Of a DNA stretch of 64,000 nt, positions 3,522-34,321 are shown piece after piece; positions within the stretch are counted from its first letter, which is position 1; the number at the start of each line of letters is the position of its first letter. The notes under the pieces were generated by a model, which worked only from the letters and a program-made list of their open reading frames with translations, did no database searches and was not told the DNA's origin. Source of the stretch: Massalongia carnosa (taxonomy: Eukaryota); assembly GCA_965645245.1 (NCBI GenBank), contig OZ287079.1, forward strand, positions 806,001-870,000, in the 5' to 3' direction. The translations under genes and the position numbers were made by a program.

Positions 3522-4015
3522 AATGGGAGAATGGGGAGCAATTGAACAAGGCGAGAAACTTAGTAGTGACTGAAAGAATGTGGATCTGTGACCTTTCTTA
3601 TAGACAAGGAAAAAACAGTCCCTCCTTAGCCAGTGTCCACTCTGATGTCTCAACAGAGAAACCTGTTTGCTTAACATGCTTGTTTGCCATGATGAGAATT
3701 TCAACTCCGGCTTTTTCAAGGGTCCAATTGCCCAAAAGCAAATTGAGCGCAGGGTTATTCCAATTTGATTTAACCGGCCTTAGGCCGGTTAAATAATAAG
3801 AGGCAACTGCCGCACAATCTCATCTAGTGCCTTAAGGAGGCATAATTGCCAAAAAGAAATGTCTTTGTGCCTTCGATCAATGAGTTTACTAAGCTCTTTG
3901 ATGTCCGAGGGATTTTGTATTTTTTGCGTGTCCAGAACTCAACCACGGGTGAACTGACGCTTTGATGATTTTTGAACCAATGGGGCGCTCAGGGCCAGCA
4001 ATATACTTTTTTTGT

Positions 4016-4870
4016 CTTCGACCATCGAGCTTAGCGAGCTCTTTTGGTGTCCGAGGACTTGGGTGCCTTCGACCATCGAGCGTAGCAAGCTCTTCTGGTG
4101 TCCGAGGACTTGGGTGCCTTCGACCATCGAGCGTAGCAAGCTCTTCTGGTGTCCGAGGACTTGAGTGCCTTCGACCATCGAGCGTAGCAAGCTCTTCTGG
4201 TGTCCGAGGACTTGGGTGCCTTCGACCATCGAGCGTAGCAAGCTCTTCTGGTGTCCGAGGACTTAAGTGCCTTCGACCATCGAGCGTAGCAAGCTCTTCT
4301 GGTGTCCGAGGACTTAAGTGCCTTCGACCAGCGAGCGTAGCAAGCTCTTCTGGTGTCCGAGGACTTGGGTGCCTTCGACCAGCGAGCTTAGCAAGCTCTT
4401 TGGTGTCCGAGGACTTGGGTGCCTTCGACCATCGAGCTTAGCAAGCTCTTTGGTGTCCGAGGACTTGGGTGCCTTCGACCATCGAGCTTAGCAAGCTCTT
4501 TGGTGTCCGAGGGCTTGAGTGCCTTCGACCATCGGGCTTAGCAAGCTCTTTGGTGTCCGAGGGCTTGAGTGCCTTCGACCATCGGGCTTAGCAAGCTCTT
4601 TGGTGTCCGAGGACTTGAGTGCCTTCGACCATCGAGCTTAGCAAGCTCTTTGGTGTCCGAGGACTTGAGTGCCTTCGACCATCGAGCTTAGCAAGCTCTT
4701 TGGTGTCCGAGGACTTGATTGCCTTCGACCATCGAGCTTAGCAAGCTCTTTGGTGTCCGAGGACTTGAGTGCCTTCGACCATCGAGCTTAGCAAGCTCTT
4801 TGGTGTCCGAGGACTTGAGTGCCTTCGACCATCGAGCTTAGCAAGCTCTTTGGTGTCCGAGGGCTTCGGT
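4016..4870. repeat. Tandem array in copia-1 5' leader: about 7 x 51 bp then about 10 x 50 bp
   Basis: Unit CTTCGACCATCGAGC(G/T)TAGCAAGCTCTT(C)TGGTGTCCGAGGACTT(G/A)(G/A)GTGC. Period is 51 from 4016 to 4372, then 50 (GCAAGCTCTT at 4391, 4441 ... 4841). A degenerate copy sits near 3868-3915. Confidence 0.97.
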
Positions 4871-5119
4871 GTAGTACGATCAATGTGTTCATGCTCTTTC
4901 TAACACGCAGTTTTTGTGCTTCTGACAAGAAATCGCTGTGTACAGAAGAGAGAACTGATTGATGTGATTTAAGGGATCGTTTCTAAAGACACAGAAAGAT
5001 TTTAGTCATGTGTCTACGATTCATTGAATAGGAACGATGCTTAGCTGATTGCACTGCGAAGCTGCGGATTAAAAGTTTCGATTCGTTTAAATCGATAGCA
5101 CCCTTCCGGGCTCATAACC

Positions 5120-15190: not shown

Positions 15191-18100
15191 TTAGAAAGCA
15201 CAGTCCCTCAAAATCTTCCCATCAACAATCTGACCCATGTGCGTCGCACTCCACACTTCTCCCTTTCTTCGCATGTTTAGTAGCGCCTGGATGAGGGGCA
15301 GAGGGCTGGTCATAAACGGGCACGACCACATCACCGCCTCCCGACTGGCCGGGAGTACGAATCCCTCGCTGGAGACTTGGCAGTTCGGCGGCAGTTGCGT
15401 GGTGCCGCCGACCAAGCCGCAAAAATCGCACAGATCCCGATACTCCCGAGCGGATTCGAAGTAGAGCGCTCCGGCGAACAGATTGAGGACGCTCAGCGTT
15501 CTGGGGTCTACGGTGAACGGCGAGGGGGAAGGTATGCTGAGGAAATCGAGACGGCTGAACGAGAGCATGGCCTTGGAGGACCTAGGGGCGTAGACGTGGA
15601 GAACGACGTTTCGGGATTGGCGAATCGCGGGAAGAAGCTCGTTCGCCTCAAAGGGGCTCAGCAGCAACACTTCTGCCACACCTTTGCCTTTGCCGACGAG
15701 AATCCAATTGACTGGCCGAAGGTAATCGTCATAAGGCGTTGCCCGGACTGCGTGGACAAAATCCTCGCTGGCGAAGGCACGAATGTCCAGCGAAGGAATG
15801 TTGTAGTCTTTAGCACTCGTGTGTTGTAGGATATTGAATAAAGATCTGAACCCATCGTTTTTCTCTGGCAGAACTCCCGTACGCACAAATGCTCTGACTG
15901 CGGCGTGAATATTGTGGATCCGCGGCTCGATTTCCCGGGGGCGCTCCACTTGGCGCTCTTGCTCGATTTCGTGAGCTACCTCTCGTTCTTGCTCCTCTTG
16001 TAGAGTAGAATTTCGCTCCACAGCGGCATCTAATTTACGCCATTCCACGGCAAGAGCTTGAGCGATAGGATCATTGAGGTTGTCCTTGAGTCCAGCTGGT
16101 AAATCTGCTCTCTCGTCTTGAGGGTCTACATACATCTCTTTCAAACTCATCGCCTCGCGGTCTTTCACACAGTCCAAATACTTGTCTACCCCATCACACT
16201 TAGCAATAGCGGTGGCATCTTCGGATCCTGCTGCTTGAAGTAGAAGGTCATGAGCTAATCGTCGTTTTGTGTAGTTTACCCCTCTTGTGACCCACAAGGC
16301 ACGTTCACGTTCTACGTGACAACAAGTTCTCTCCAAGGTCCAGCGGATGACATCTGAAATTTCAATCTCATGGGAGGGCTTCTGGACTAAGCTCATAATA
16401 CTACGGTTCACCTCAGGGGGCGCAAAACAGACAACAGACTGGCCATGTCCGAGTTTCCGCATTCGCATACATGCTGTAAACAATAAAATCTCAGCCTTCG
16501 GCCATGGAAAAATCGATTTCCAAAAAGGACATTATACGTACCTTGAACGAATCTATCTTTGGTTAACTCGGGCCCAAGCATCACTGCGGCTCGGTAGGTT
16601 GTAGGGAAACCTAAATCTGTTCCTCGGGTGTGCGCCTCATCTAGGTAAACCACGCAATCGCCCAGTCGCTCGCGGAACGAGGACGCCATCAATCGTTCTA
16701 ATTTTCCTTCTCTGTCAACAACCATCAACTCATCATTCAGATAAAAAAATATCCCAGCCTTTACATCCGGTGCTAGTAGAAGCCATTCTTCGATGACTTC
16801 TCGATTCCCAATCTCCAGTACCTGGGCACCAACGTCAAGCAGCACACGGACTGAAGGTCTCTCGGAAACCAGCATAACAAGCAGTTGCTTTACAGAAATT
16901 CGTTGCTCGTTCTCGTCAGATGCAGCAACATATCGTCGGTTTTCTTTTCGAAGCAAAATATTCAAAACCATAGCGCTGGTGTGCTTCAACTCTGCAAGAT
17001 CCTGTTGATGGATGTTAAGAGGTAAAAGTAAGCGGTTATCATTGGTTCCACTGAACCCAGTTGTCATGGCATATTTACAATCAGCTGGAAGGTCCCACGC
17101 CGAAGCCGAAAGCTTGTAGGCGAATTCTTTGCCCTCGTTCGGGAAAACGATGCGTGCTAGGAAGAAATCAATTGCATTCTTGTTCAACCGTAGATGGGGA
17201 AATATCAAAAGGTTCCATTGGTTTTCATCTTCAAGATTCACGCCGGAAAAATTCCGTAACTCTGCTGGAAGCTTACTGTCTCGCTGCCATTCGTGGTATT
17301 CTAAAGATGGATCGGTCATTTTATCGAGATGTTTGAAACAAGTTCGCAGCTGAACCTTTGTGAGACCCGTGTAGTAATAGCTCAGGCACGTAAGAACTAT
17401 AGCAACATCAGGATGAGCAAATTCGGCCGATACGCTCGGTACCGATTTTGCCCGATAAGGAACAGCCATCAAGCATCTTTTGGGGTCAAGGCCGTAGTTC
17501 ACCAGCCATCGCTTTCTTTGCAAAGAGAATAACAAGATGCCATGAGCAAGGAGGCCCCTTAACAAGAAAATTACTTTGATCTGGACGGTGTCTTTGAAAA
17601 TTTGAAGAACCTTTTGGACAACCCTGGAACTGGGTACCGGATGGCCAATGAATTCAGAAATAATACCTCGAGTAAGTTCGTCACAGTGACCGAAGGATAC
17701 TCCTGCTACAAGGCCACCTAACAGGCTTTCTACTAATCCAGCTATGAGTCGAACACCGACATCAACATCTAGGATGCGGCAAGTGGGAAATGAGCCATTC
17801 CCACGGAAAATCCACTCGATCCCTTTAGGAAATCTAGCGTGAAGAAAGTGTGCATGCTTGTCGATGAGTGAAAACAAGGACTGAACAACAGTCCACCTTG
17901 CTGGTTGCCCATCCAAGCCCATCTGAGTACCGATAGTATAAGCCAGCTCAAAGTTCACATGCAGTAACTCATCGCTTTCATCAAGAATATCTCGACTATT
18001 TTGTTCTAGCCATATTTGAGTATTTATCATAGCAATAGCGGAGCTCGAGGCCCTGGCATATAACCTGTCGATACCCATAAGCTTGAACGAAAGGATGTGC

Positions 18101-21100
18101 TCCGGTTGAATGAGGAGAACGCCCCGAAAGTCCCTGCACTCCCGATATATCTCGTCCAAATGAGCGGCTATATTGTCTATCGATTTCGTCTTGCGCGAGA
18201 AAGGCGCGTAATATATACAACGCCCCACGATTCCGCCAAGACGTTGCGAGAGGACATGTCCCATCTGCCTTGCAAGTGGTTTAAGAACAACACAACGGAC
18301 CAATTTCCGACCGTCTGCCAGGGCACAAGCAAGCATAGGGATTATAACAGAAGACTTTCCCTCTCCCATGTTGAGTTGCATGACGAAATTTTTATTTCCC
18401 TTCGAAGGCGCTATCATCTCCTTCGCCACTTTCGCCTGAATCGGCCGTATAAGAAAATCATTCTCAATTTCCATGAGCCGCCAGTCAGGTTGTTCGTCGG
18501 GGCTCCACCCATCGTTTTTTTGGTTGCTAATCTCTTGGTGAAAGGCCCGAATATTTCCAGCTTCGGCGAACGAAAGAAGCCGTATCGCTTTCTGATGGTT
18601 TGTGATACCTTCTGCATATGCCAGCAGAGCTCGTTTCCAAGAATCATGTAGCTTCGAAATATGCACATGGGATAACCTGGAAAGTAGTTCTCGTGGAGTG
18701 GCAAGCGGCCATATACCAGCTTCTAAAAGTAAAGATTCTGCTGCTCGCCCAGGCTTTGGTTGAAGCTTATCAAAGATCGCTTTGTAACAGTTTCCTTCGT
18801 GCAGTTCGGCCATACGCTGATATGTGATCAATGTATCTATGGAGCAAGAGATTTCATTCATAGCATAACTGAGATTTGCAATTTTCAGCGCCTGCAAACT
18901 CTTGAGCAGCTCATAGCCATATTCTGTCCTAGTTGCATCGCTCCGCGAAGAGCATTCTGTGATGATGCTCTGTAGCTCTACAAACTCATTATCGTTCTCC
19001 AAAATAGGCTCATCCGACCCAGAAAATTGGAGAATTACTTTCTGAGTAACAGGAAGATCAAGGGGGTTTTCGAGCAATTGATCAAGACCTGGGATCGGGT
19101 TTATTTTAATGGTAGGTTTGGAAAATTCCCTATCAAGGCGAAAGTCGACCAATATAGGTCCTTGCGGCTTCAATTGGTTCATTTCACGAAGGATCGGCTT
19201 AACGTCTTCAAAGTGTCGAAAGAGGCTGTAGTTGCGAAACCATACGCTAAATTTGCTCTCCATTGCGATAGTAACCGCTTGTACATTGATCAGGGGTGCA
19301 TGAGTCTGGAAGAAAGCTGGCGGATGTGCTTGCGGCCAATGACGAACGATCTCGTTAACGACGTTCGTGCTTTGCCGTTTGACTTCATTCTGATACACCC
19401 TAGCGGCTTCCTGAATCTCCGTAGCGGATCCTGTGTTCTTAAACTCGTATGCATTTTCCTGTACGATGTCTGATATCACGGATCTTTGCGGCCGGTATCC
19501 TTTCCAAAGCTCATATGCGCCTGATGGAGGCATTTTCGGTAGGCGTGTTGTGTCGGTAAATGCAAAGGCTAAAAGTGAGCGTAACTCCTTCGCGGATACC
19601 CCATTTCCATAGGAAATAGTGCAGAACAGAAAAGAAAGACTGAAGATGTTATCAGAAGAGCAATAGCGACAGTGGCTATATAAAGAGCCCCAAAGAGATG
19701 AAAACGGTATATCTAAAAGCTCTGAAATTGACTGAACTTCGAAAGGTTGACCAAAGCCATCGACAGTTTGCCATTTCATAAGATAGGTATAAATATCGTC
19801 GTCTACTTCAAGTTTGGATGGCCATCTTTGAATCAAGTCTGCGAATTCAAAACTTCGCTTTGCAGATTCGGTTTTCTCATCATGATCCCGAGATATATAT
19901 TCCAAATCAACAGCTTCACCGACTGTCAAATCCTGGACAGTACGGGGATAGAAACCCAAACTACGGCGTGATGCCCTCTGGTGGAGAAACTCCGAACCCC
20001 GAGATTTCAGCGAACGCTTGGCTTCGCCCTCGTATAACCCCATAAATCTGTTATTATAATAAATGATATGCTCCGCAAGCTCATAAAATTTGGCATGCTG
20101 GACTAGAGGGCTAAGGTTGGGATTCCACTGCGTCTTTTGTATGCACTTGAGATATGGCGGATAGAAATCCCGTGCTGGAGTCAAGCTAGCAATCATATTG
20201 AGGAGCTCTAATACGCCTTCAGAAAGTGCAGTGCACGATCGTGCTCTAGTCTCGACAAGACAAGAGACGGCCTCTTCTACTCCCGTACGACCAGTAAACG
20301 GATCCGGTAGGACTTGACTAGTGACTGCGTGCAAATAAGCCCTATAAAACTGCGCCATCAGGTCAGGGCCGCTTCTGACCTGACGAAGGCGCTGTTCGAG
20401 TTGGAATATGAAGTAACGGACTGTCTTTGTTGTTCCAGGATTCACAAATACCTCAGTTAAATCTACTTCCCTGTGCATGGAGATTGATCCGTACGGAACT
20501 AGGATAGAACGACGAGTATGAGAAGAGAGCTTCCCAACCCCGTGTAGGACCAGCCGGCTCTTTAGGCCGCAAAATGTGCCGATAGCTTGATTTTGATCTA
20601 CAACCGCATGGAGCTCAGGACACTCTAGTTGACCTTTCTTATTGACAAAAAATCCAATGCTAAACCTTGGCAACTCAACAAGAATCTCGGCGTCATCCGA
20701 AAGGACAACTTCAATGAATTGTTCATCTTCGATGGGCTTGAATATTTGCTTGATCTGATTACATGTAGAACTCCGAGGGTCTATCAGGGTTCGGTGAGGC
20801 TGGTATAGGATTTGAGGCTCGCTCCTGAAGGAGAGCCGCCAGTTTTTAATTTTGGGAAGCCATAATTCTGCCCACGGTCGAAATTCAATTTCACCGGTGT
20901 TGAGATCAAGCCAGTGAACACAATCGGTAACAAAATTAGCAGGCACATCGCCCTTCAGATACTGACTCGGGATCGCTTCCAGGAAGTGATGACTGTTCTT
21001 GATTCGAATTAGCAAGTCGCCATTCAATGTGCCAAAATAAACTCTGTAATCCGATATTAATCTCGTTGTCTGGTAAGACATTCCTATTTCATCGGCGGCG

Positions 21101-24100
21101 ACGACATCGAGCACAGCAGCCCCGAATATCCTTTTGTATAACTCGCCACCGGTGAATGTGCTCGGAAGCCGTCCCAAGCGACGCCCGTCAACGAGCAACT
21201 CTCCACTTAGTAGGTTATAATGAACCAACTGAGAAAGAGAACCCCCGAACGGTGTTGTATTGGCAAATACCCATCTTTCAAGTGGTGCCTTCATGAATTC
21301 CCAGCTGTCTCCTAGACGAGCTCCATGCCATATGTTCAGGATTCCCTCTGACAAACCAGAAAAGCCTTGCCGAACCAGTTGAGCTATCTTGGGTTCTAAC
21401 AACTGCGCTAGCCTTTGATCTCGAGCTAAGGCATGCTGTAATAGCAATGGTAACTGAGAGACATCGTCAGGAGTAATATCGTGGGCAATAATGCTTAGCT
21501 CAATAAACATAGCAATATCGATACTACTTTGTAGCACCAAATCAACATGCCGAGAGTCCACGAAATATGTCATGCGACATGTCAAGGCGGACTTCAAAAG
21601 CTTGTGTTGAAACTGGCTATTTCCACAAGATTTTCTTTGATCCTGCATCTTCCGCGCCAACTCTTGTGTCCAATGTAGCGTGGCTCGTCGGATTCTAGAT
21701 AGTAGTTGCAGAGCCTGCTCGATGATAAGCTTCTCTACAGTAAGTGAGAGCAAACGAAGCGTTAAGATTGTCAGAAGGCTCATTAAAGTAAGTTCTTTCC
21801 AGCTCGCTTCGATATTTTGGACAGCCCTTGAGAGAACCTCATGCATTCGTTTGCAGAAATCTAAATCTCCGAAGACAGCGTGCGACTCTCGAAGGAGGTT
21901 TTCTAGAAGGGGAGACCCTACCTGCCATGCTGCTTGTGTAAAAAGTATGCCAACTGCGTCCGCATTCAAGTCTAAATTCGATGAGACGAGCTCGCGGATG
22001 ATGTTGTACCATTGTAGGCGCTCGCCTGCGCGCAAAGAACCAAAAGCGTGGAATTCATGCAACGTAATACTAGTTGAGCAAGATATCTGATCAGCGAGCA
22101 CTTCATTCTGGGTATGTCGCGGCGAATCAACCGTCCGTTGTAAATTGGAATAAGGTCCTTTAGGAAGATTTGAGATGCACCAGTAATTAAAAGTAGGAAC
22201 AGCAGACTGCTCACTCGTCCATGAATTCCCGGCAGTATCAAGAACCTGATAAATAAGCCCATTATTGAGTGTAACTTTCTTAGCATCTACTGGAATCTGC
22301 GGCTTGTTGTAATGTGCCCGAAGAAAAGACTTTGCGGTCGATCCAACTGTTATACGCGGGTTTCCTGACTTATAGTATTGCTTTAAATATATATGTATCT
22401 GCTCCTCGACATTTCTTCCGTTTATAGTGTCACGTCGACCAAGGTCATGAATAATCTTGAAAGTCACATCTCGCCAAGCAGTAATAGCTCTAGTTTTCCA
22501 GTTAGCTTGCTCACCAGTCCTGCTGAAAATAAGGTTTGGGTTGTCTGCTTACCCTGGACATGATAATTCAAACACCGCAGCTTTTGCTTGTACGTTGGAG
22601 GCTGGCAAAGGCCATTCATGAACGAGTATGTAGATTCTTTTAGCTTCATTTTCAAGTCCACATTTGGCACACGAATAATCATGATAGCTTATACCACGCC
22701 GGTTGATTTTCATAAGATGCTGAAGTCGGTTGGCTTGTTCTATGAGCGAGCTATACCTCGCATTTTTCTGCGCCAACTCTTCCAGCTTAGCTTCTTTATC
22801 TCTGCTAGCATTATCTTCAATCTCTTGGCGTAACTTTTGAAGCTCATGGGAAGAGTTGAAGTATTGAACACTGAATGATTGATTGGTGATCGTTCCGAAC
22901 ATGGATGGAAGGTTCTTGGTAGCTCTTTGGTGCCGCTGTTCCAAATATCTTTCAATATGCTGAATACGGATCAATTCCTCTCGTCGTGGCAATAGCAATG
23001 GTTGAAGGATACTGGATGGTATTTCTGGAGAATATTGTTCTAGTAGGGGATGTAGTCCCAAGGCTATGATGTCTAAGGCGCACCATAACTCCAAAATTGT
23101 GAGTAACATCAATGACAGATTCTCCGAATCTAGACTGTACTTTTGAATTGCGGAAGATTTATAAGAGTCAATCAGCATTTTCAAGGATTGGCAATCGTCA
23201 CTGCTATGCCGTGAGTGTGCTTCTTCGGAGATCTCAAGCCATCCGGAACTCTGCAGGTTTTTGTTCTCTGGTTTTAGAAGCCATAGTTTCAACTTGTCTC
23301 GAACCCAGCTCTCGAAATCTACAAGCGTCAACATCAGGTGTTTTTCTGGTACATTTAGAGATCCTGGTAATGGCAGCGTCTTATGGGAGCCGGACAGGCG
23401 AGACGGAGCTGATGCAGAGAATTCATTGCGATCTATGCGGCCCAGGCATCTGTTCAGAACGTTGCCAAGGTAAGTCTTGCTTGTATTAAGGCTCAAGGCT
23501 GTGTCAGCGAAGGAAGACAAGACAGTTCGTACTTCGGTTGAATCCGCTCGTCGTGTTACAAGTACACGCTTTTCCATCTGTACTTTACAGTCTTTTACCG
23601 AACTTATAGTAAATATTTCGACAAAATCAAACATTTTTCCAGCCAGCTTAGACGCTCGTCGAGCGGCCTTGGCATTAATGACGAATAGGAGGTCTAACGG
23701 CAGCCTTTTCAGTCTCCCTAACCGTGAGATCTCTGCTATCGCGAAAATCATAAAATTCTTGTACTGAAGGTGAGAATCATCTAATCCCGCATTTACTAGA
23801 GCAAGCTGAATGGCAATCTTGAGAGTAATCCACACAGATGAGCGTCTCCAGGGAAGCCGAGCGTTGTTCAAACAAACATCGTCCCGAGTCCGCTTCTCGA
23901 TGTTGCACACTTTGATGGGCTGTCCATATGGCGCTAGAATGGCCATAAGCAGCTCTGTGACTAGTCGTGGATGAGAAGACTCTCTCGTTTCCACAACCTC
24001 AGAATTTCCTTTTCGAGATTTTGGCATTACCTCGTCCACCTGCTCCATGTCCAGACGTTGTAAGAAACTCGCGAACTCATTAGAGAATTTAGGGTTGTGG

Positions 24101-24622
24101 AAAGTCTTGTAAGGAAGCTGAATAGCGTGCCCAGGAAATTTTCGTCGCAAACAAGTTCTGGAGTTCATGACTGCCTTTGCTGTTGCTGATACCTCAAAGC
24201 ATTCAAAAATAATTCCATCAGCGACCTTTCTAAGGATGATCCCCGCGTTTTGGCATTTTACATCTAGAGCTATGCTTTCTTGAGCGACGTCAGCATAAGG
24301 ATCAAGATCAGGCTTTGAACGTATTGGAACAGGCAGAAAAGCTACCTTCTTCAGCTAGGGTATTCATGACTTGCACTAATGCTTCCTTTGATATCGATCC
24401 ATGCTCAGCGACTTTTACCCACGATTTTAGCATCTTCGTGATGCGGGCCCAGCATGGCTTCCATTTCATTGCCACATTTTCCTGAAAGACTAGAGCTTGG
24501 CTATAAATGAAGTTGATGAGCGCGATCTCCAGTTTCGCATTACTATCGGTTTCTTGGGGGAGCTTTGGTGGAAGAATGACATGATTAATCATGAAATCAA
24601 GAGTTTCGAGCGGGATTGACAT
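15191..24622 (-). CDS. Giant DUF6606/DUF3638/DUF3645-type protein (~3,077 aa) with SF2-like ATPase core
   Basis: Exons 24622-24346, 24278-22553, 22489-16542 and 16473-15191 total 9,234 nt in frame, with GT-AG introns. Motifs: NHVILPPKLPQ, QNAG, MQLNMGEGKSSVI, ILDESDE, MAVPYRAKSVPS..AEFAHPDV, GFSGT, HTRGTDL, QACMRMRKLG, EEQERE. Confidence 0.9.
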
Positions 24623-25603
24623 GATGAAGCCTTGGCACCAAACTACTGACGGTTAAGACTGAAAGCTGTAAAAATTATGACCTTGGGGTGGTTAAAAGAG
24701 TTGAAAATAGAGCAAGACTCATCAGCTTGAAAGCCAGGGACAACACAAAAGATAAAAGTGAGAGATAGCTAATGAAGGAATTGCACAACACGTAGGCAGA
24801 CTAGGAATCAGGTGCTGGATAGACACAAATAGGTGTTGAACCGGACGAAAAAGCGGTCAATGAGGAGACAAAAATTTGTTGAGTAGGTGAGAGCAAGGCT
24901 ATGTACAGAACATGTTGTCTACCGCCATCATGTTTGCCTGAAGGCTGTTATTCACCCATATTCAATTCAAAGAGTCAATCCAATCAAAACAGAATGTATC
25001 AAATTCTGCAGATTGCGATGATCGCTATTGGAGAGATGAAAGGAACAACACATAGACCTAGTGGATTAGGTTTCTAGTGCTTTTTTCTATCTTTCTGAGT
25101 ATGTTCCTACAGCTTTCTACCTAGATAGTACCTTAGAGCTTTTACACCCCACTTGAGGTATAGCCAGCCTTGCAAGCGGAGGCTGGATCATTTTTGTGGC
25201 GCTGAAATCAGCTTTCTACCTATAGAGCTGTTTTTTTCAAGGAGTAAGGTTCCTAACGTGCCGCTAATGATATCGCACAAATGCACGGCACGACATAAAA
25301 ACCATCAATCCATCTTAATCATGTATTGCGTATAGGACCGGTCGACCAAATGTATGCTGTAAGCATCGTTTTCACCGTCTATGATGAACATAATGTGATT
25401 GGGCCTCAATATTGTAGTTCTGAGCCCGTTCAAACTTTGGAGAAAAGCAAGCTGACCTAGAAGTGCACCTTGGCTTCTCTTGCCCGCCCTAACGGGCATC
25501 TAACGCACTTCTTAGCAGAGCTTCCGAAAGCCATGGCCTGATGTGCATCTATAATAAAACTCGAATCATGGGTAGTTCGATTCTCCTAACATCTCAGACT
25601 GTT

Positions 25604-26260
25604 TTAAAACCAATCCATTGGCGCCTCCATATTTCTTGCTAAATACGCTGCATTGTCCTGTTTAAATCTTTGGCTAGGCTGATGCAGGCTCAACCGCTTT
25701 TCGAGAGCACCCTTCAGCGTCCACGAGGGCGCCTCTTCCCTCGTAAAGTTGATGCATCTGGCCTCTGAAAAGTTCAAGGAGCCGTCACGCCGAAGTCCGA
25801 GTTCAAGCCTCCAATTAAACGCATCGACTAGAGCGTCAACCAGATTTGCCAGGATAGCATAGCGTACGGAATCCTTATACTTCGGATCTGGTATGCGAGA
25901 AAGAGCCCATCGACGCTCTGGGTGGTAGAAGAAATACCCGGTTTCGCTACCAATCCGGTTGATCCTGTACGAGCAAAGGTTTTCGTAGAGGCGATAGAGC
26001 GAGCAAAGAGCACTATTGCGGATGCGAAAGAGGGGGATCACAAACAACTAGCGGTTGTTGCCATGACAGTCCACAAGCTCGGGGTTGTCCTGTACTTCTT
26101 CAACAGATCTGCAAGGTTTTGGCAGCTCGAATCTCCAAGGAAATGGCCATAGAAGCTGGGTGAGTATAGTCCATGGTTTCTCGCAGACACTGATACGTCG
26201 TATGGTTGTCCGAACACCAAGTGGTGACTGGTGGTTGATCGTCAGAATCCGAGGCCTCAT
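25604..26260 (-). pseudogene. Fungal 'RYAILA...AFNWRLxLGLRRD' family gene with an in-frame stop
   Basis: The two listed ORFs (26048..26359 and 25604..26047) share one frame, separated by TAG at 26048-26050. Motifs SLYRLYE, IPDP..DSVRYAILA..V.AFNWRLELGLRRD, PSWT. Confidence 0.75.
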
Positions 26261-26448
26261 GAAGAAATGCCCTTGGTATGAAAGATAAGGGCTCGTAATC
26301 TTTCCCGATCTTAATATTCCGTACATTTTACAGCTAAGTGATTGAATATTTTGGCGCAATGCGTATTGATAAGTCTACATATTATATATAATAGATAAAC
26401 AAACCATGTCCTTTTGCCATGAAAATTCTCTCATACTCTACAGTCACC

Positions 26449-26900
26449 TTATTTTCTCTGGACATGTACACAATATAGTTTTAACTTCTCATCAGTTCGC
26501 GTGGGAGTGGACCTTTTCTCTTTTGTCAGCAATCACTTCAATATAGAAATAACATCCATACCACAGTTCGTAAATCCAGTCCAACAGAGCTTTCTAGCCA
26601 AGAAAAGCTCTCATTTGACAGTGTATATGAAAAGGGTTCGGCCTTTCCATAAAATAGCATCTTGGGCAAAGGATGCCTTAAATAATGGCATGACCTTGCT
26701 ATTTACCCACATAGGGGTCAAGTTCAGATTTCTTGGGCACGGTATTGATAGCCTTCTGCAACATTCCCGCTATCTTCCCCCGATCCTGTATCCTAGGATT
26801 GAAGATGTAATCGATGTCTTCAGTCATGGCTCTATTGTGCAAATAACTGCCTGAAACGAAACCTCCTATGGCGATAAGCTTGAGAGGGATTGGTTATTTT
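26449..26900 (-). pseudogene. Nucleotidyltransferase-like (DUF7582/AbiEii-like) pseudogene
   Basis: Manual translation gives IPLKLIAIGGFVSGSYLHNRAMTEDIDYIFNP...KAINTV, then a +1 frameshift to PMWVNSKVMPLFKASFAQDAILWKGRTLFIYTVK*ELFLARKL. The GG-x9-R-xx-T-E-DID motif is at ~26807-26866. Confidence 0.72.
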
Positions 26901-27789
26901 GCGTGGTTTCCGGGATCTTATATGTAATATCCACACCAAATCCTCCAAGGGGCTAACAAATACCATTTGTCTGTTAGATGTCGACTGTTGTCAAGTGAAT
27001 CTGAGGGTTTATTAAAGACTTTTTTTTTACCCTGCTTGAATTATTCAACGTTAAATGTACTCGTATCCTACTGCTGCCGACACGCTATACGTTGGACTGA
27101 AATAGATATTACAAATTGTAGAGAAATACTCCCGTGGGAACAGTGCATTTGAGTAATTGTGAAATGATGACCTGAAAGCATTTATGGTAGAAGCTCTTGA
27201 CTATTTTAGCCTTTGGGGGACCCATGACCCAGAGGAAGTTACGTCTAAAATAGGGGTCCCTTTTGCGTTTGGATTACATTACTTGCTAGACGTAAAAGTC
27301 AAACGCTTTCGAGAAACAACACTTTAGCTATATATTAGTTACAAGGAGAAGTTTTCGAAAAAGGCTGGAGATCTCCTTTGATTTATGTCACCCCCAAACA
27401 CCTCTGGCAAAACTCAAAATATGGTTACACGCAGAGGGCAACTTGCACCAGCATCAGTTTATATGTGCTACTGCTGCAACAGAACATATTGGAAAAGTCC
27501 CCTCGCAGTTTACGGCGTTATGAGGCGCATTGCTCCTAATCTCCTGTCCTCTTGATTGCTATATCTTAGCATTAGATGCTTTTCGTTAATCTGATAGTAT
27601 GGGATACCAAGGAGATCTCCCCTATACGTCACCGGAACGGCTTCAAGACCGCCAGTCCAATCACCCTGACCTGCCTATTCGTATGCTAAACGATGCAGCT
27701 GAAAGATACGAGCAGCGATTAAATCGAGGTCAAAGGATCGTCGACAGCCTTTGAGGAAGTTGCTAGTTAACATTATTATGCCCGATGTT

Positions 27790-28346
27790 TCTCGAATCAT
27801 CATGAAACGACGTACAAGAAAGAAAAGTATAACGAGGTTGATCATACTCGATGCCTACAAAGAACATCTTCCTATTATGCTCGATGACGATTCGAACATT
27901 GTTTTCATGTAAGATGAAGCTAAAACACACAAAATTCGAGAGACAATGAACTGATTCCTAGAAAAAAGATACACGATCATGAATTGATCGACCTACTTTT
28001 TCGATTTGAACCTCATCGAGATGATATGAAAGAAAACGAAGAACATAGTCTTTAAAAGACACTTCAAATTACGCATTCTGTCAGTAAGTGCCTCATAAAT
28101 TTAAGAGATCATTGTTGATTCTGTCTTGAAGACATGAGACTACATAACTGAGGCGTATTTGAAAGATTTAATGCGGTCAATGCCTCGTCGAGTGCAAGTA
28201 GTCCTAAATGTAAATGAAGATTATAATAAATATTAGCTATATGTAAACAAATAATTGCATCCATTTAATGAGCCGTTGATTTTGTAGTAGCAAGAATTAT
28301 CTATTCATACTGCTATGAAATTTGTTTAAATTCGCCTAGTTATCCG
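27790..28346 (+). mobile_element. RIP-like mutated Tc1 remnant (DD34E C-terminus)
   Basis: Frame from 27901 reads VFM*DEAKTHKIRETMN*FLEKRYTIMN*STYFFDLNLIEMI*...SMPRRVQVV...YNKY*, a transition-riddled version of FMQDGA...WPPYSPDLNPIE. Confidence 0.85.
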
Positions 28347-28865
28347 TATTGGAATTTGCCGAGATACCTGAATATTTGCGACCGAGGTTCTTTTGCCTCC
28401 TGCTTACTAATTTCCAGATTAGGCAATCATATGCTATATGCGAAAAGCTTCAGATATCGGCACGACTTCGGCAACTACGAGGAGGCAAAAGTATGCAGCA
28501 AGAATGCTACATTTCGGAGGCAATTCAGCTGTTCATGATCAATGAGTGTCTCGGTGTCTCCGGTCAGCAACGAGGTGTATTTTGCCCAGCTGAAAAGGTT
28601 CAAAGGAAGCAGGTTCATGCATTTGATATAGGCCGAGATGGAGGCCCTCAAGCAGTATAAAGAGACGATGATTCCTCATGTAATTTAGCTATTCAGTCGT
28701 TCAGAATTCAGTTCAGCAGATAGCTAAATTTGGAGTATCTTCACTGGAAATACGGAGTACCTGCATCACGTTTGCCAAGCACTTCTCTTTGCCTATCCTT
28801 GATAGCCCTAGACCCTCTTCTCCTGCATCCCGCTGCCGTATGCCTGGTTGATTTTTTGTTCAACA
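28347..28865 (+). repeat. 5' LTR of copia-2
   Basis: TATTG...CAACA; no difference from the 3' LTR seen by eye. Confidence 0.96.
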
Positions 28866-29010
28866 GGTTATGAGCCCGGATAGCACTCTATTCAAATCCA
28901 GGAGTATTTATCACTAGATCTTTTATCTTAGGGGATATAGCCCGTGTGCTTGTTTGAACTCCTAGCTATCCATTTCGGCACTCGAATAGGACGACTCCTT
29001 CACCACCAAA

Positions 29011-32000
29011 ATGTCTGCCTCTGAAGACAGCCAAGATACCGGAGGTGCCATGAGGGCATCCACCACCCCCGAGGCTAGCAAGGCCTCCTCATCAAAGGAC
29101 AAGGGCCTAGCGGCTATGACAGCCATTGATGGGGGATATAAAAGGGGTGCCGGTGTGAAAGGTGAAGTAAAACTGCCAAAACTTACTAGCGACAACTACA
29201 GGCTGTGGTCCCACCTTTTGAAGGTGCACTTAATTGCCAAAGGGCTCTGGAAAGTAGTCAGTGGAGAGATACTCGAACCACCAGGAAGCATGCCTTTGGA
29301 TAGAGACTCGTGGATCTTTGATGATGCCACAGCAATCACCATCCTCATGGGAGCCATGGATGAAAGGCAGCAGAAGCATGTGCAACTGCAGCAATCTGCC
29401 AAAGGGGTATGGGATGCCCAAAAGGAAATTCACGGCAAAGACTCCAGGACACGCTTGGTCCCCATGCTCCGCCGATTTCATACGTATAAGGCCAAGGCAG
29501 AGGAAGGAGTGGATGAGACTGCAGCAGAGCTAGAAGATATGAGGGATATCATCGCAAACATCAACCCAGAGGTGAAGCCATCCGATATCATGATGGCCCT
29601 AGTCCTAATGGATTCGGTGGATCACGAGCGGTATAATGCGGTGAAATTGCAATTAAACGACTTGGAAAACCTCACGTTTCGGAAGGTGATTGAAAAATAT
29701 AAGGAAATCGAGCAGATGGCCAGAGATAACGCGGGGACCCCCTATGAAATCGCTAATAAGGTCTCCGCCAAGCCCTATAAGTTTAAGGGGAAATGTTACC
29801 ACTGCAAGAAACCTGGTCACGTGAAAACCAAGTGTTTTGAATGGCTTGCCAGTGACGAAGGCAAGGCCTACAATGAAGATACCGCCAGCACGGCCCAATC
29901 AAAGGGCAAGAAAGCCAAGGACGGAGGTAAGGGAGAGGAAAAGTTAAGGGATGGCAGACGTGGCAAGGGCCGAGGAGGTCACCTTGCACGCAAAGCATCC
30001 GGCACAAGGGACAGCGACAGTGAGGATAGCGACGACGAGTCAGTGTACGGTCGCATGGCCATTGACCACGTGGACCAGAGCGACCATGAGGATTACACCG
30101 ACTACGTCAACAATGGGGCGCGCTATCGCACTTCCCAGAAGTGCTCCTCCCCTAAGAGTTTTGCTAGAGTGGCAAAACTCACTTCCAAAGTAATACCCCC
30201 GAATGAGTGGATTATTGACTCAGGGGCCAGTCGCCATATGACGGCCAATCGGAAGCTATTCACAAACTTTACACTGCAGGTAAGTTGGGTGACGATAGCT
30301 AATGGGGTAAAGATTAAATCACCTGGTAAAGGTGATGTGGCTGTGGAGCTGGAGGATAAGAAGTTCAAACTCACAGAAGTGTTATACGTACCTGAGCTGG
30401 ATGCGAATTTGTTGTCAATTTCGGCATTACAAGCTAGAGGAATGATTGTGAGGTTTGGATTGAGTTGCGTCGAAATTTTGAGGAGAGGTACCTGCCTCGC
30501 CACCGGGTTTTTGGTGGGAAAAACGTACCTGCTCCGATCCGCAGGAAGCGGAGTGGCCCTGATAGCCACTGAGGATCCCGAGGAAGAAATCCCTATTACT
30601 TCTGATCCAAATATCAGCGAAAGATCGTCCGGAAATCAGAATTTGCCAAGAATGCCAGAAAATGCAAAAGACAACAAAAAAGCAATTAGCACTCGGTCCC
30701 AATTAGAAAGAGACCGATACCTACTATGGCATGGCCGCATGGGGCACGTGGGAGCATACAGACTCACTGTCCTCCATGAAGCCACTAATGGAGTGGGAGC
30801 CAAGTTACATGACCATGAGAAGGAATGCAAATGCATCACATGTACTCAGACGAAAATGACTCGAATAATCAACCGAAACCCACCAGAACGGGCTACCCGC
30901 CGTCTGGAACGAGTCTATTCAGACTTTTGGGGTCCATATCGGGTGCCCAATAACCAGGGGACCAAGTATTTTGTGTCCTTCACCGACGAAGCCACCGGCT
31001 ACTCGGATGTTTACCTCGGGGCCAGGAGCGAGCTAGAAAAGCTCTTTCGGATGTTCAAAAATCGTGCCGAGATCGAGACAGGGGAGCGAATCAGGCCCTT
31101 GCGATGTGATAACGCTTTGGAGTATGAAAAACTGGCTAGAACGATATTGCCGGAAGGAATAGTGGTGGAGTTTACCACGGCCTATACCCCTGAGCAGAAT
31201 GGGGTTGCAGAAAGACTCAATAGAACGCTGATGCAGATGGTATCAGCGATGCAGATGTGGTCTGGGTTGCCTAGGTCATTTTGGGGGGACGCAGTACTGA
31301 CTGCCAATTATCTGAAGAATCGGCTTCCGTCGAAGCGGTTTGATATGAAGACCCCATATGAGATGTGGCACCAGAAGAAGCCAGAGGTAGGCCATATAAG
31401 GACCTATGGATGCCTCGTACACGTGCACGTTCCTAGCGAAACTCGTGCGAAGATGGATAAGGTATCCCATCAGGGAATTCTCGTTGGATTCCGGTCATCA
31501 AGACAGTATAAGGTGCATAATCCTGATACGAAAACAGTGGGAGTACATACCTCAGTGAAGTTTTTCGAGGATTGGCCAGGAGGCCCTTTACTGAACGCAC
31601 CAGTGGAACCGGGTGAGTGGGAGTTAGATGTTGCAGATTCAGACTACGAACCGGATGAGGAACAAGGAGTTCCTACGCACAAACTTACCAACCCTGAGAC
31701 AGCCTTAGAGTTTCAGGGAACATCAAACCTAGAAAATGACGACGCAATAGTTCTAGGCGATAATGTTCCCGGAGAAAGTATTGAGGGTGCAGAGAATCCC
31801 TCACTGAATGAAGGCGATATTCCCGGAAATCGCGAAACTCCGGGAAATCAAGAAGAAGGAAACGAGACCTCGGAAACTGAAATCCGAGCGCCAGAATTCG
31901 AAGGTCTGCCGACTACTGGGCGAAATTCGCCAGAGCCAGCACAGAATTCAAAAAGGGGGCAGAAAGCCACGCTCCCACCGAAAAATCAACAGCTTGTTTC

Positions 32001-33648
32001 CGCAGCATCTTCCCGGTCAAGACGCACGAAAAAGCCGTATGACTCCAAGGCATTTGATAAGTCAAAAGCACCAATGGCTATCGTTTATATAGCTCGATTG
32101 CCTGAACCGGCTACCTATAAGGAAGCCATGACTGGACCAAATCGCCGTGAATGGAGGGGGGCAACGGAAGAAGAGCTGGAAGCGCTGCGGTGGAAACGCA
32201 CGTTTATCATCGTGCCGAGGCCGAAAAACCGTGAGCTAATAACTTCGAAATGGGTGTTCAAAATCAAATACACATCCGCCGCAGTTATTGAGCGGTTCAA
32301 GGCCAGACTTTGTGCTAGAGGTTTCAGTCAGAAATATGGCATTGATTACGAAGAGACATTTGCACCCACCTTAAGGTTCGAATCTCTGAGAATGTTAATG
32401 GCAATTACTGCGTTACTGAACCTGGAAGCACATCAAATGGACGTTTCAAATGCCTATTTAGAAGGTGAGTTGGAAGAAGAAATCTACATGGAAATACCAG
32501 AGGGAATGGATGTTCCGAACGGAAAAAATAAGGCCCTTCTACTGCAAAAAGGTCTTTATGGTCTCAAGCAATCCGGCCGAATCTGGAGCAGAAAGTTCAG
32601 AAGGTATCTGAGATCCATTGGATTCGAACCAATCTCAGCCGACAATTGTGTGTTCATAAACCTCCAAGCCGGCGTCATTATCTCAGTATACGTCGATGAT
32701 CTTCTCATCTTTGCCGCCAAAATATCCCGCATCAATGCAGTCAAGGCACAGCTAAAACGGGAGTATAAGATGAAGGATTTGGGAGAGGTGGACCATATCC
32801 TGGGAATGCGAGTGCGGAGGAACCGAAAATCTAGAAACCTAACACTAGATCAGTCAGTATACATCAACAACTTCATTTCGAAATATGGGATGGAAAATGC
32901 ACACCCAGTTTCAACTCCTATTGATGGATATGCAGCACTGACTGCCGCCACCCCCACGGAACCCAGGACCGACCAACTGGAGTATCAGAAAAGGATAGGA
33001 AGTCTAATGTATGCCATGACAAGTACCAGACCTGACATAGCCTTTGCAATTGGCAAGTTAAGTCAATTCAGTCACGATCCAGGTGTAAAGCATCGAGTTG
33101 CGCTGGATAGAGTAATTAGGTATTTGAAAGGCACTGCAAGCTTAGGCCTAGTCTATGGCCCTAGCCCGAAAGGCAACACCCCCATAGGGTACGCGGATGC
33201 GGCTTATGCCGATTCCTCGGAAAATCGAAAATCCACACATGGCATGACTTTGCTTCTTGCAAATTCAGCATGCATCTGGACCAGCAAGAAACAACGCACT
33301 GTTTCTACCTCAACCACTGAAGCCGAATACGTTTCGCAATGCCAGGCTTCAAAACAGCTCGTTTGGGCAGGTCGCTGGCTACAGCAACTTGGGATTAGAG
33401 AGAGAGGAGCCATCGAACTTCGGTGTGATAATCAAGGGGCCATTGCACTCGTCAGAAACCCCGAAAACCACTCACGTACGAAGCACATCGATGTGCAATA
33501 TCACTACATTCGCGAGGTAGTGGAGGATGGACTTATCCAAATCAGCTATGTTCCCACCAACGAGATGGCAGCTGATATTCTAACAAAGCCTTTGACCAAG
33601 GCGGCTTTTGAACGCGGACGTGCTCTACTAGGTATGAAGGAAACCTAG
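29011..33648 (+). CDS. Copia gag-pol polyprotein (1545 aa)
   Basis: Single ORF: gag, zinc knuckle CYHCKKPGHVKTKC, protease WIIDSGAS, WHGRMGH, integrase SDFWGP/RCDNALEY/QNGVAER, RT YVDDLL, RNase H GYADAAYA/TTEAEY/CDNQGA. Confidence 0.97.
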   Translation: MSASEDSQDTGGAMRASTTPEASKASSSKDKGLAAMTAIDGGYKRGAGVKGEVKLPKLTSDNYRLWSHLLKVHLIAKGLWKVVSGEILEPPGSMPLDRDSWIFDDATAITILMGAMDERQQKHVQLQQSAKGVWDAQKEIHGKDSRTRLVPMLRRFHTYKAKAEEGVDETAAELEDMRDIIANINPEVKPSDIMMALVLMDSVDHERYNAVKLQLNDLENLTFRKVIEKYKEIEQMARDNAGTPYEIANKVSAKPYKFKGKCYHCKKPGHVKTKCFEWLASDEGKAYNEDTASTAQSKGKKAKDGGKGEEKLRDGRRGKGRGGHLARKASGTRDSDSEDSDDESVYGRMAIDHVDQSDHEDYTDYVNNGARYRTSQKCSSPKSFARVAKLTSKVIPPNEWIIDSGASRHMTANRKLFTNFTLQVSWVTIANGVKIKSPGKGDVAVELEDKKFKLTEVLYVPELDANLLSISALQARGMIVRFGLSCVEILRRGTCLATGFLVGKTYLLRSAGSGVALIATEDPEEEIPITSDPNISERSSGNQNLPRMPENAKDNKKAISTRSQLERDRYLLWHGRMGHVGAYRLTVLHEATNGVGAKLHDHEKECKCITCTQTKMTRIINRNPPERATRRLERVYSDFWGPYRVPNNQGTKYFVSFTDEATGYSDVYLGARSELEKLFRMFKNRAEIETGERIRPLRCDNALEYEKLARTILPEGIVVEFTTAYTPEQNGVAERLNRTLMQMVSAMQMWSGLPRSFWGDAVLTANYLKNRLPSKRFDMKTPYEMWHQKKPEVGHIRTYGCLVHVHVPSETRAKMDKVSHQGILVGFRSSRQYKVHNPDTKTVGVHTSVKFFEDWPGGPLLNAPVEPGEWELDVADSDYEPDEEQGVPTHKLTNPETALEFQGTSNLENDDAIVLGDNVPGESIEGAENPSLNEGDIPGNRETPGNQEEGNETSETEIRAPEFEGLPTTGRNSPEPAQNSKRGQKATLPPKNQQLVSAASSRSRRTKKPYDSKAFDKSKAPMAIVYIARLPEPATYKEAMTGPNRREWRGATEEELEALRWKRTFIIVPRPKNRELITSKWVFKIKYTSAAVIERFKARLCARGFSQKYGIDYEETFAPTLRFESLRMLMAITALLNLEAHQMDVSNAYLEGELEEEIYMEIPEGMDVPNGKNKALLLQKGLYGLKQSGRIWSRKFRRYLRSIGFEPISADNCVFINLQAGVIISVYVDDLLIFAAKISRINAVKAQLKREYKMKDLGEVDHILGMRVRRNRKSRNLTLDQSVYINNFISKYGMENAHPVSTPIDGYAALTAATPTEPRTDQLEYQKRIGSLMYAMTSTRPDIAFAIGKLSQFSHDPGVKHRVALDRVIRYLKGTASLGLVYGPSPKGNTPIGYADAAYADSSENRKSTHGMTLLLANSACIWTSKKQRTVSTSTTEAEYVSQCQASKQLVWAGRWLQQLGIRERGAIELRCDNQGAIALVRNPENHSRTKHIDVQYHYIREVVEDGLIQISYVPTNEMAADILTKPLTKAAFERGRALLGMKET

Positions 33649-33802
33649 AGAGTTAGCGATAGTTTATCGCAACCACATCGGCCCACGAGGGCCCATGGCC
33701 TACCTGAGCATCGTGTTCAGATGGGCAGAACGCGGAGGATTTCTTTTAATTCGTTTTTGGGCATGCGAGGGTATGAAGCCATTCAGATACTCGGAGTGGG
33801 AG

Positions 33803-34321
33803 TATTGGAATTTGCCGAGATACCTGAATATTTGCGACCGAGGTTCTTTTGCCTCCTGCTTACTAATTTCCAGATTAGGCAATCATATGCTATATGCGAA
33901 AAGCTTCAGATATCGGCACGACTTCGGCAACTACGAGGAGGCAAAAGTATGCAGCAAGAATGCTACATTTCGGAGGCAATTCAGCTGTTCATGATCAATG
34001 AGTGTCTCGGTGTCTCCGGTCAGCAACGAGGTGTATTTTGCCCAGCTGAAAAGGTTCAAAGGAAGCAGGTTCATGCATTTGATATAGGCCGAGATGGAGG
34101 CCCTCAAGCAGTATAAAGAGACGATGATTCCTCATGTAATTTAGCTATTCAGTCGTTCAGAATTCAGTTCAGCAGATAGCTAAATTTGGAGTATCTTCAC
34201 TGGAAATACGGAGTACCTGCATCACGTTTGCCAAGCACTTCTCTTTGCCTATCCTTGATAGCCCTAGACCCTCTTCTCCTGCATCCCGCTGCCGTATGCC
34301 TGGTTGATTTTTTGTTCAACA
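33803..34321 (+). repeat. 3' LTR of copia-2
   Basis: Follows the PPT and is followed by TSD ATCCG. Confidence 0.96.

Follow-up and report, generated by a model that had tools for sequence, protein, structure and literature searches.

A decayed two-gene locus in Massalongia carnosa points to a nucleotidyltransferase-partner gene pair common to bacteria and moulds

The window analysed here is a 64,000-nucleotide stretch of Massalongia carnosa DNA (contig OZ287079.1, positions 806,001 to 870,000, forward strand) from a genome of 52 Mb, and it contains the remnants of two adjacent minus-strand genes, one for a nucleotidyltransferase (NTase) and one for a partner protein of a family without a name. 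Its relatives and the labels of public sequencing runs indicate a fungus, probably one associated with lichens. An initial annotation of this DNA had described two broken genes from a set of quoted motifs. All of these motifs were located, and the remnants were verified at 25604..26260 (partner) and 26384..26893 (NTase), with the following features:

26384..26893, minus strand: NTase pseudogene, DUF7582/DUF6036-like, of the MenT/AbiEii fold, spread over three frames with four stops; family assigned by intact relatives
26807..26869, minus strand: catalytic motifs I-II, IGG-x9-R-x-x-T-x-D-x-D, intact within the NTase remnant
26587..26616, minus strand: remnant of the EWALERKL motif, its conserved W now a TGA stop (26613) and its invariant K kept
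26261..26381, no strand: intergenic gap of ~120 bp, from the NTase stop at 26384 to the partner ATG at 26260
25604..26260, minus strand: partner pseudogene, unnamed helical family of ~220-260 amino acids (aa), with ATG 26260, TAG 26050 and TAA 25606

The gap is thus narrower than the 200 bp or so first reported. In the NTase remnant, translation of the window places stops at 26896, 26613, 26535 and 26483; the frame shifts near 26725 and again near 26530, the middle is shortened, and no position could be assigned to the 5′ end. The catalytic segment reads IGGFVSGSYLHNRAMTEDIDY (26869-26807), where the threonine lies two residues ahead of DxD, as do the phospho-acceptors MenT1 T39 and TglT S78. 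The NTase signature proposed initially is present, with the arginine spaced as R-x-x-T-x-D-x-D and not as R-x-T. MWVN and LARKL are present in a second frame (~26713-26587), and the DxxD of motif IV, next after the EWALERKL remnant, is degraded. In a loose form, GG-x(8-16)-R-x(1-2)-[ST]-x-D-x-D, the motif has a single match in the window, and 8 of 100 shuffles contain it as well; taken by itself it is therefore only modest evidence. The partner is better preserved: its ATG shares a frame with a 147-aa open reading frame (ORF, 25604-26047) that carries IPDPKYKDSVRYAILANLV...PSWT...RN, a single internal TAG separates the two, and the terminal TAA falls about three codons short of the family's end. 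Seven of 41 conserved columns are altered in it, compared with 0-6 across 46 family members. Homology to the two families described below is strong: the two NTase pieces have profile scores of 44.3 and 14.7 bits, and the partner reaches 236.5 bits.

The lesions are true and not errors of assembly, because the sequence recurs in contigs from public runs: a 4596-base contig of one run (X3) is identical to window positions 23139-27734, and a 13-kb contig of a run from another study (X4) has no indel inside either gene, a comparison that bears on indels and not on stop codons. A further run (X8) gave no coverage of the locus, which does not prove that it is absent there. Both genes are true pseudogenes. 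The NTase has decayed further than the partner, as would be expected where a toxin has to be the first to go. The joint loss of both genes, initially taken as a sign of linked function, carries little weight, since adjacent genes in a stretch full of repeats can degenerate side by side. Two special causes were considered and set aside. Repeat-induced point mutation (RIP) is not indicated by the RIP indices of 25001-27000, and stop-codon editing of the TAG at 26050 was rejected, as relatives mostly have Q and not W at that site.

As a homologue query the 62-residue NTase piece of the window gave no matches, nor did a Pfam search of the broken pieces, and intact fungal NTase relatives were obtained from loci beside partner genes. 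These relatives comprise 128 proteins among 3504 candidates, and in the 80 that were aligned G43, R53, D58, D60, K142, D158 and D161 are invariant, with G-G, R, T/S, DxD, K and DxxD kept in 79-80 of them. Position 56 is T in 77 and S in 3, a count of residue presence and not of phosphorylation. By spacing, these residues align with R37, T39, D41xD43, K137, D149 and D152 of MenT1 (the last three correspond also in an alignment of the bacterial NTase profile) and with G62, R76, S78, D80, D82, K189 and D208 of TglT. In the excerpts available from the MenT papers, the corresponding residues are needed for toxicity and for its control by phosphorylation (PMC7205606; PMC11375011; bioRxiv 10.64898/2026.01.19.700257; PMC7450476). 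The DUF1814 superfamily, as defined by its motifs in an excerpt of PMC7205606, has hG[GS] as motif I and a motif II that contains DxD, both present in the fungal NTases and in the window remnant, and the lysine of motif III and aspartates of motif IV are found in the fungal relatives. The two-lobed MenT-like fold is likewise seen in a confident model of one relative (P0059, mean predicted local distance difference test score, pLDDT, of 93.7). By these tests the NTase belongs to the MenT/AbiEii (DUF1814) superfamily.

When this model was compared with 48161 chains, the best match was Pb27 (Z 8.9, root-mean-square deviation (rmsd) 4.2, 183 residues aligned), and MenT1 (Z 8.3, rmsd 4.5, 171 aligned), TglT (Z 7.1, rmsd 4.7, 172 aligned) and MenT4 (Z 6.9) joined it among the top five; the best Foldseek E-value was 0.027. 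The fungal NTase sequence profile matches AbiGII (9hlo, E 2e-4). With a sequence match, a confident model and matched MenT structures, the AbiEii/MenT kind of fold first proposed from the letters is borne out. Among Pfam families, two relatives pass the cut-off of 27 for DUF7582 (PF24483) with 29.9 (L008) and 32.6 (L009), and 63 of the 80 aligned members match it at E up to 1. The cut-off for DUF6036 (PF19502) is not reached by the fungal NTases (best E 0.12-0.17), and weak AbiEii matches occur in 4 of 80. Some fungal NTases (L014:6448-6950; P0169, P0172, P0175) bear C-terminal tails with Trp/Tyr-rich motifs, possibly an added domain.

The 147-aa partner piece matched 58 proteins among 231 candidates, and all 22 that carry a species name come from moulds, which we take to belong to the Pezizomycotina. 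A profile of 46 partner proteins collected 529 clusters at E up to 0.001, and no Pfam family matched. The model of the partner is mostly helical and confident (pLDDT 89); fold searches gave no clear match (best Z 5.0, Foldseek E 3.6), a result that shows neither a new fold nor the absence of a known one. No model or structure of a COG5340/AbiEi, COG4861 or MenA1-type antitoxin matched the partner in two fold searches or in Pfam, PADLOC and NCBIfam, which leaves room for a remote relation. The basic N-terminus of fungal partners (first 35 residues) recalls a mitochondrial presequence, although the model shows residues 11-40 as ordered helices (pLDDT 84-90); in many bacterial partners a DNA-binding domain occupies this place.

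In other fungi, too, the two families lie side by side, as the initial annotation had anticipated. Seven of 25 partner-bearing metagenome loci have an NTase within 1.3 kb, and in genomes with locus tags in both match lists two of four pairs are consecutive (ETB97_010267/8 and, in Cirrosporium, M1834_002605/6); two further pairs were counted as linked from contigs of equal size (551444; 8600). With some 10,000 genes assumed per fungal genome, chance adjacency would be about 1 in 1000. The “operon-like” tandem order suggested for the pair is not the rule in fungi, because all seven metagenome pairs are tail-to-tail, with 33-87 bp from stop to stop in four of them. One protein record (P0197) fuses NTase and partner in the order of the window, and another (P0269) joins pieces of the two in the opposite order. 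These may be gene-call artefacts, P0197 a mis-spliced call of two tandem genes; even so, both show co-oriented neighbours. Across 11 NTase/partner pairs the within-pair identities are correlated (Mantel rho 0.86, p 0.0002).

The nearest bacterial family to the fungal NTases, by clusters and by profile comparison (98.7%, E 1.6e-16), is DUF6036, which agrees with the relationship first suspected. Six of seven bacterial NTases pass the DUF6036 cut-off and three of seven that of AbiEii, and the bacterial profile matches MenT1 (E 2.6e-4). A motif scan of prokaryote genomes, which favours GC-rich ones, yielded at least 120 loci. Among the matches listed, 91 of 120 loci have a DUF6036-type NTase, and in the 60 such loci with full flanks the partner lies upstream in 46 and downstream in 7 and is missing from 7, that is, 53 of 60 are linked, a count that leans high because the bacterial partner profile was built partly from the same loci; the partner was found in none of 29 listed loci without an NTase. 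The two-gene linkage looked for in toxin-antitoxin systems is hence seen in fungi (7 of 25) and in bacteria (53 of 60 among the matches listed). Half of the 12 bacterial partners scanned begin with a ribbon-helix-helix (RHH)/TacA-like or XRE-type helix-turn-helix (XRE-HTH) domain, and two scanned from Ktedonobacteria have no HTH. In Ktedonobacteria the order is NTase then partner in 53 of 61 fetched loci, many places being fetched twice and four loci of unpublished genomes left out, and the pair is strongly expanded, with up to five or more copies per genome (five NTase matches in Ktedonobacter robiniae). Pattern scans for the fungal partner in prokaryote genomes and for the NTase in plasmids gave no matches. 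The DUF6036 NTase with its partner family is a widespread and unstudied bacterial pair.

That the fungal partner resembles the proteins beside bacterial DUF6036 NTases had been proposed from motif similarity, and the resemblance was confirmed on fetched sequences. The fungal partner profile predates the retrieval of any bacterial sequence. ORFs lying directly upstream of bacterial NTases filled all 10 of its best places and 18 of the best 20 (2591 ORFs; background 5%), and in the reciprocal search with bacterial partners 49 of the top 50 of 645 sequences were fungal partners, of which the set contained 136. HHalign comparison of 136 fungal partners with all bacteria gave 83.8% (E 7.8e-6, 112 columns) and with bacteria other than Ktedonobacteria 78%, and in neither case did any of 60 block shuffles score as high. 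A shared pattern extends up to the C-terminus (a helix, D/E-P, Y/W-A-x-L-A-x-x-x-E, P-x-W, F-x-x-R-N/G-I), and the fungal partner resembles the C-terminal domain of the bacterial one. The alignments make it quite likely that the two are homologous, if remotely. For the NTase, a quick, unrooted tree of 89 sequences (30 fungal, 22 of 39 from Ktedonobacteria and 37 from other bacteria) places the fungal NTases on one side of a branch with SH-aLRT support of 98. A single entry into fungi is the simplest reading, and transfer would have run from bacteria to fungi. Ktedonobacteria were considered as donors for their best scores (E ~1e-18 to 1e-20) and same gene order, but the tree does not group the fungi there, and no donor is claimed.

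The surroundings of the pair are rich in transposons, and its larger neighbours are as follows:

15191..24652, minus strand: giant DUF6606/DUF3638/DUF3645 gene of ~3000 codons, 1 kb downstream of the pair
28346..34101, plus strand: Copia-type retrotransposon (label from reading of the ORF) located upstream of the pair, carrying a 1552-aa ORF and two 300-nt repeats that are identical to each other

With its identical repeats and open 1552-aa frame the Copia-type element is a recent insertion, one of several transposons near the pair. Window positions 27700-28250 hold a high-copy repeat fragment with a contig depth 25-50 times that of the flanks, and 3962-4950 two tandem arrays with units of 51 and 50 nt. 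Remnants of DUF3435 (Starship-type) recombinases are numerous in the genome (69 matching pieces). A second partner copy (C8 near 1992200; L218:4675-5037) ends after ~125 profile positions; no NTase was found within 10 kb of it, and three queries found no intact NTase elsewhere in this genome. Another sequence (L029, C1:743937-744503) scores 154 bits on DUF7582 and has neither the GG nor the DxD motif; apparently this Pfam family contains, next to the NTases, a degenerate branch that probably lacks catalytic activity.

The two broken genes are what is left of a genuine gene pair, apparently undescribed, that bacteria and moulds have in common. Among titles and abstract starts, no paper on the fungal partner or the NTase/partner pair was found, though supplementary family lists could mention them, and searches under the terms DUF7582, DUF6036 and poison-antidote nucleotidyltransferases of filamentous fungi likewise found none. 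The resemblance of the fungal pair to the bacterial one suggests that fungi may have taken over a whole bacterial poison-and-antidote module. By analogy with MenAT and AbiE, we put at roughly 55% the probability that the locus is a dead copy of a module that worked like these toxin-antitoxin pairs, with the NTase as a translation-blocking toxin and the partner as its antidote. An intact NTase, a Pol-beta-fold enzyme, would most likely add nucleotides to RNA 3′ ends, which for MenT are tRNA CCA ends; MenT3 adds nucleotides to tRNA 3′-CCA ends, according to an excerpt of PMC7450476. Such addition would halt translation, and the partner would most likely keep the NTase off by binding, possibly by triggering self-phosphorylation of the Thr ahead of DxD. 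The pair would have entered moulds once, together, and would then have been rearranged (tandem, tail-to-tail, fused), often lost, and left dead at this locus. More tentatively, and at somewhat less than even odds, moulds may carry a working bacterial toxin-antitoxin system, a MenT-kind tRNA-modifying NTase with an undescribed antitoxin domain that would be the hallmark of the widespread bacterial family, as a death or growth-arrest switch in selfish drive, nonself recognition or antiviral defence.

Several observations weigh against reading the pair as a toxin and its antidote. The tool itself grades structural Z-scores of 7-9 as middling, although these matches agree with the AbiGII sequence match and with DUF6036 as the nearest bacterial clusters; the antibiotic-modifying NTases ANT(2″)-Ia (Z 7.0) and LnuA (Z 6.1) score alike. 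These fold matches would suit a linked but non-toxic enzyme and accessory subunit, in which the target of the NTase would be a small molecule, for instance an antibiotic to be inactivated or a signal to be made, and the partner would activate or regulate the enzyme; so would the DNA-binding domains of bacterial partners, which fit any autoregulated operon, and Pb27, the best structural match, a fungal NTase-like protein to which the passage seen of its description gives no toxin role. We regard this as unlikely, because the NTases keep the K, the DxxD and the R..T before DxD that excerpts of the MenT papers connect with toxicity and with the control of toxicity, because small two-gene operons in many copies in Ktedonobacteria look like toxin-antitoxin pairs, and because frequent partner orphans suit an antidote better than a needed subunit. 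Location raises a further difficulty: a basic, acid-poor N-terminus occurs in 30 of 45 fungal partners and in 0 of 78 NTases, and could target the partner to a different compartment than the NTase. In addition, two of the four tag-sharing genomes (PRK78, EMCG) have unlinked matches, co-divergence is expected from tight linkage and shared ancestry alone, and the NTase tree, without a root, names no donor.

The orphans also bear on whether the fungal linkage is merely historical, the genes having arrived jointly, or the partner resembling the bacterial one by chance, and now working apart or not at all. Over half of the informative partner loci (9 of 16) have no NTase within at least 1.5 kb on both sides, also by two bacterial profiles, the other 9 of the 25 being too short on one side; after removal of apparent duplicates (L013/L014 and L025/L026), 6 of 14 remain linked. 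Partner homology is remote: HHalign against Ktedonobacteria alone gave 37%, with 1 of 60 shuffles as high, a 46-sequence fungal alignment yields a probability of only 12.5% and 20.5%, single-sequence E-values are no better than 7e-4, and both window genes are dead. Adjacency that persists in three arrangements at 20-40% identity between pairs, and partner homology backed by two independent ranking tests and by shuffles, make such a relic improbable. Only marginally more credible is a pair turned selfish poison-antidote element, as a spore killer or addiction module of mobile DNA, or a death switch of nonself recognition. It would account for the tight spacing of the four measured tail-to-tail pairs, for repeated rearrangement and for one broken and one truncated copy in this genome amid transposon-rich surroundings, but no sign of drive or balanced alleles is seen, population data being absent, the closest Starship-type recombinase on the contig, at 556 kb, is ~275 kb away, and two pattern scans of viral contigs for the NTase and partner families found no copy.

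If the toxin-antitoxin reading is correct, the pair would be a rare case of both bacterial halves kept together in a eukaryote, would bring a new antitoxin domain common to bacteria and fungi, and would provide fungal biology with a specific candidate for poison-antidote or cell-death loci. According to an excerpt of PMC7450476, fungal genomes do contain DUF1814 NTases, and some of these NTases have no linked antitoxin. The dead copy in the window is valuable as a pointer to the family.

Among known systems, MenAT1 and MenAT3 (TakA-TglT) of Mycobacterium tuberculosis, with DUF1814 NTase toxins, resemble the pair in fold (Z 8.3 and 7.1), two-gene arrangement, hG-G motif, R and S/T before DxD, conserved K and DxxD. 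They differ in that identity is 13%, that the fungal R lies three and not two residues ahead of T, that two fold searches with the fungal partner gave no MenA structure and Pfam gave no family for it, and that the host is a eukaryote. The AbiE (AbiEi-AbiEii) and AbiG systems share the NTase superfamily, through the AbiGII and weak AbiEii matches, whereas AbiEi-type antitoxin models (Pfam, PADLOC, NCBIfam) match no partner and the fungal NTases have no PADLOC match. Because the partner matches none of their antitoxins, the pair is not assigned to AbiE or MenAT in the strict sense. Pb27 of Paracoccidioides (PDB 5uvd) is a fungal NTase of the same fold, but its 14% identity and lack of a sequence match with the fungal NTase profile indicate a separate fungal family. 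The bacterial DUF6036 operons represent the nearest bacterial family and have the same partner domain and, in Ktedonobacteria, the gene order of the window; the fungal partners are set apart from theirs by ~28 additional residues in the central part and by a basic extension at the N-terminus.
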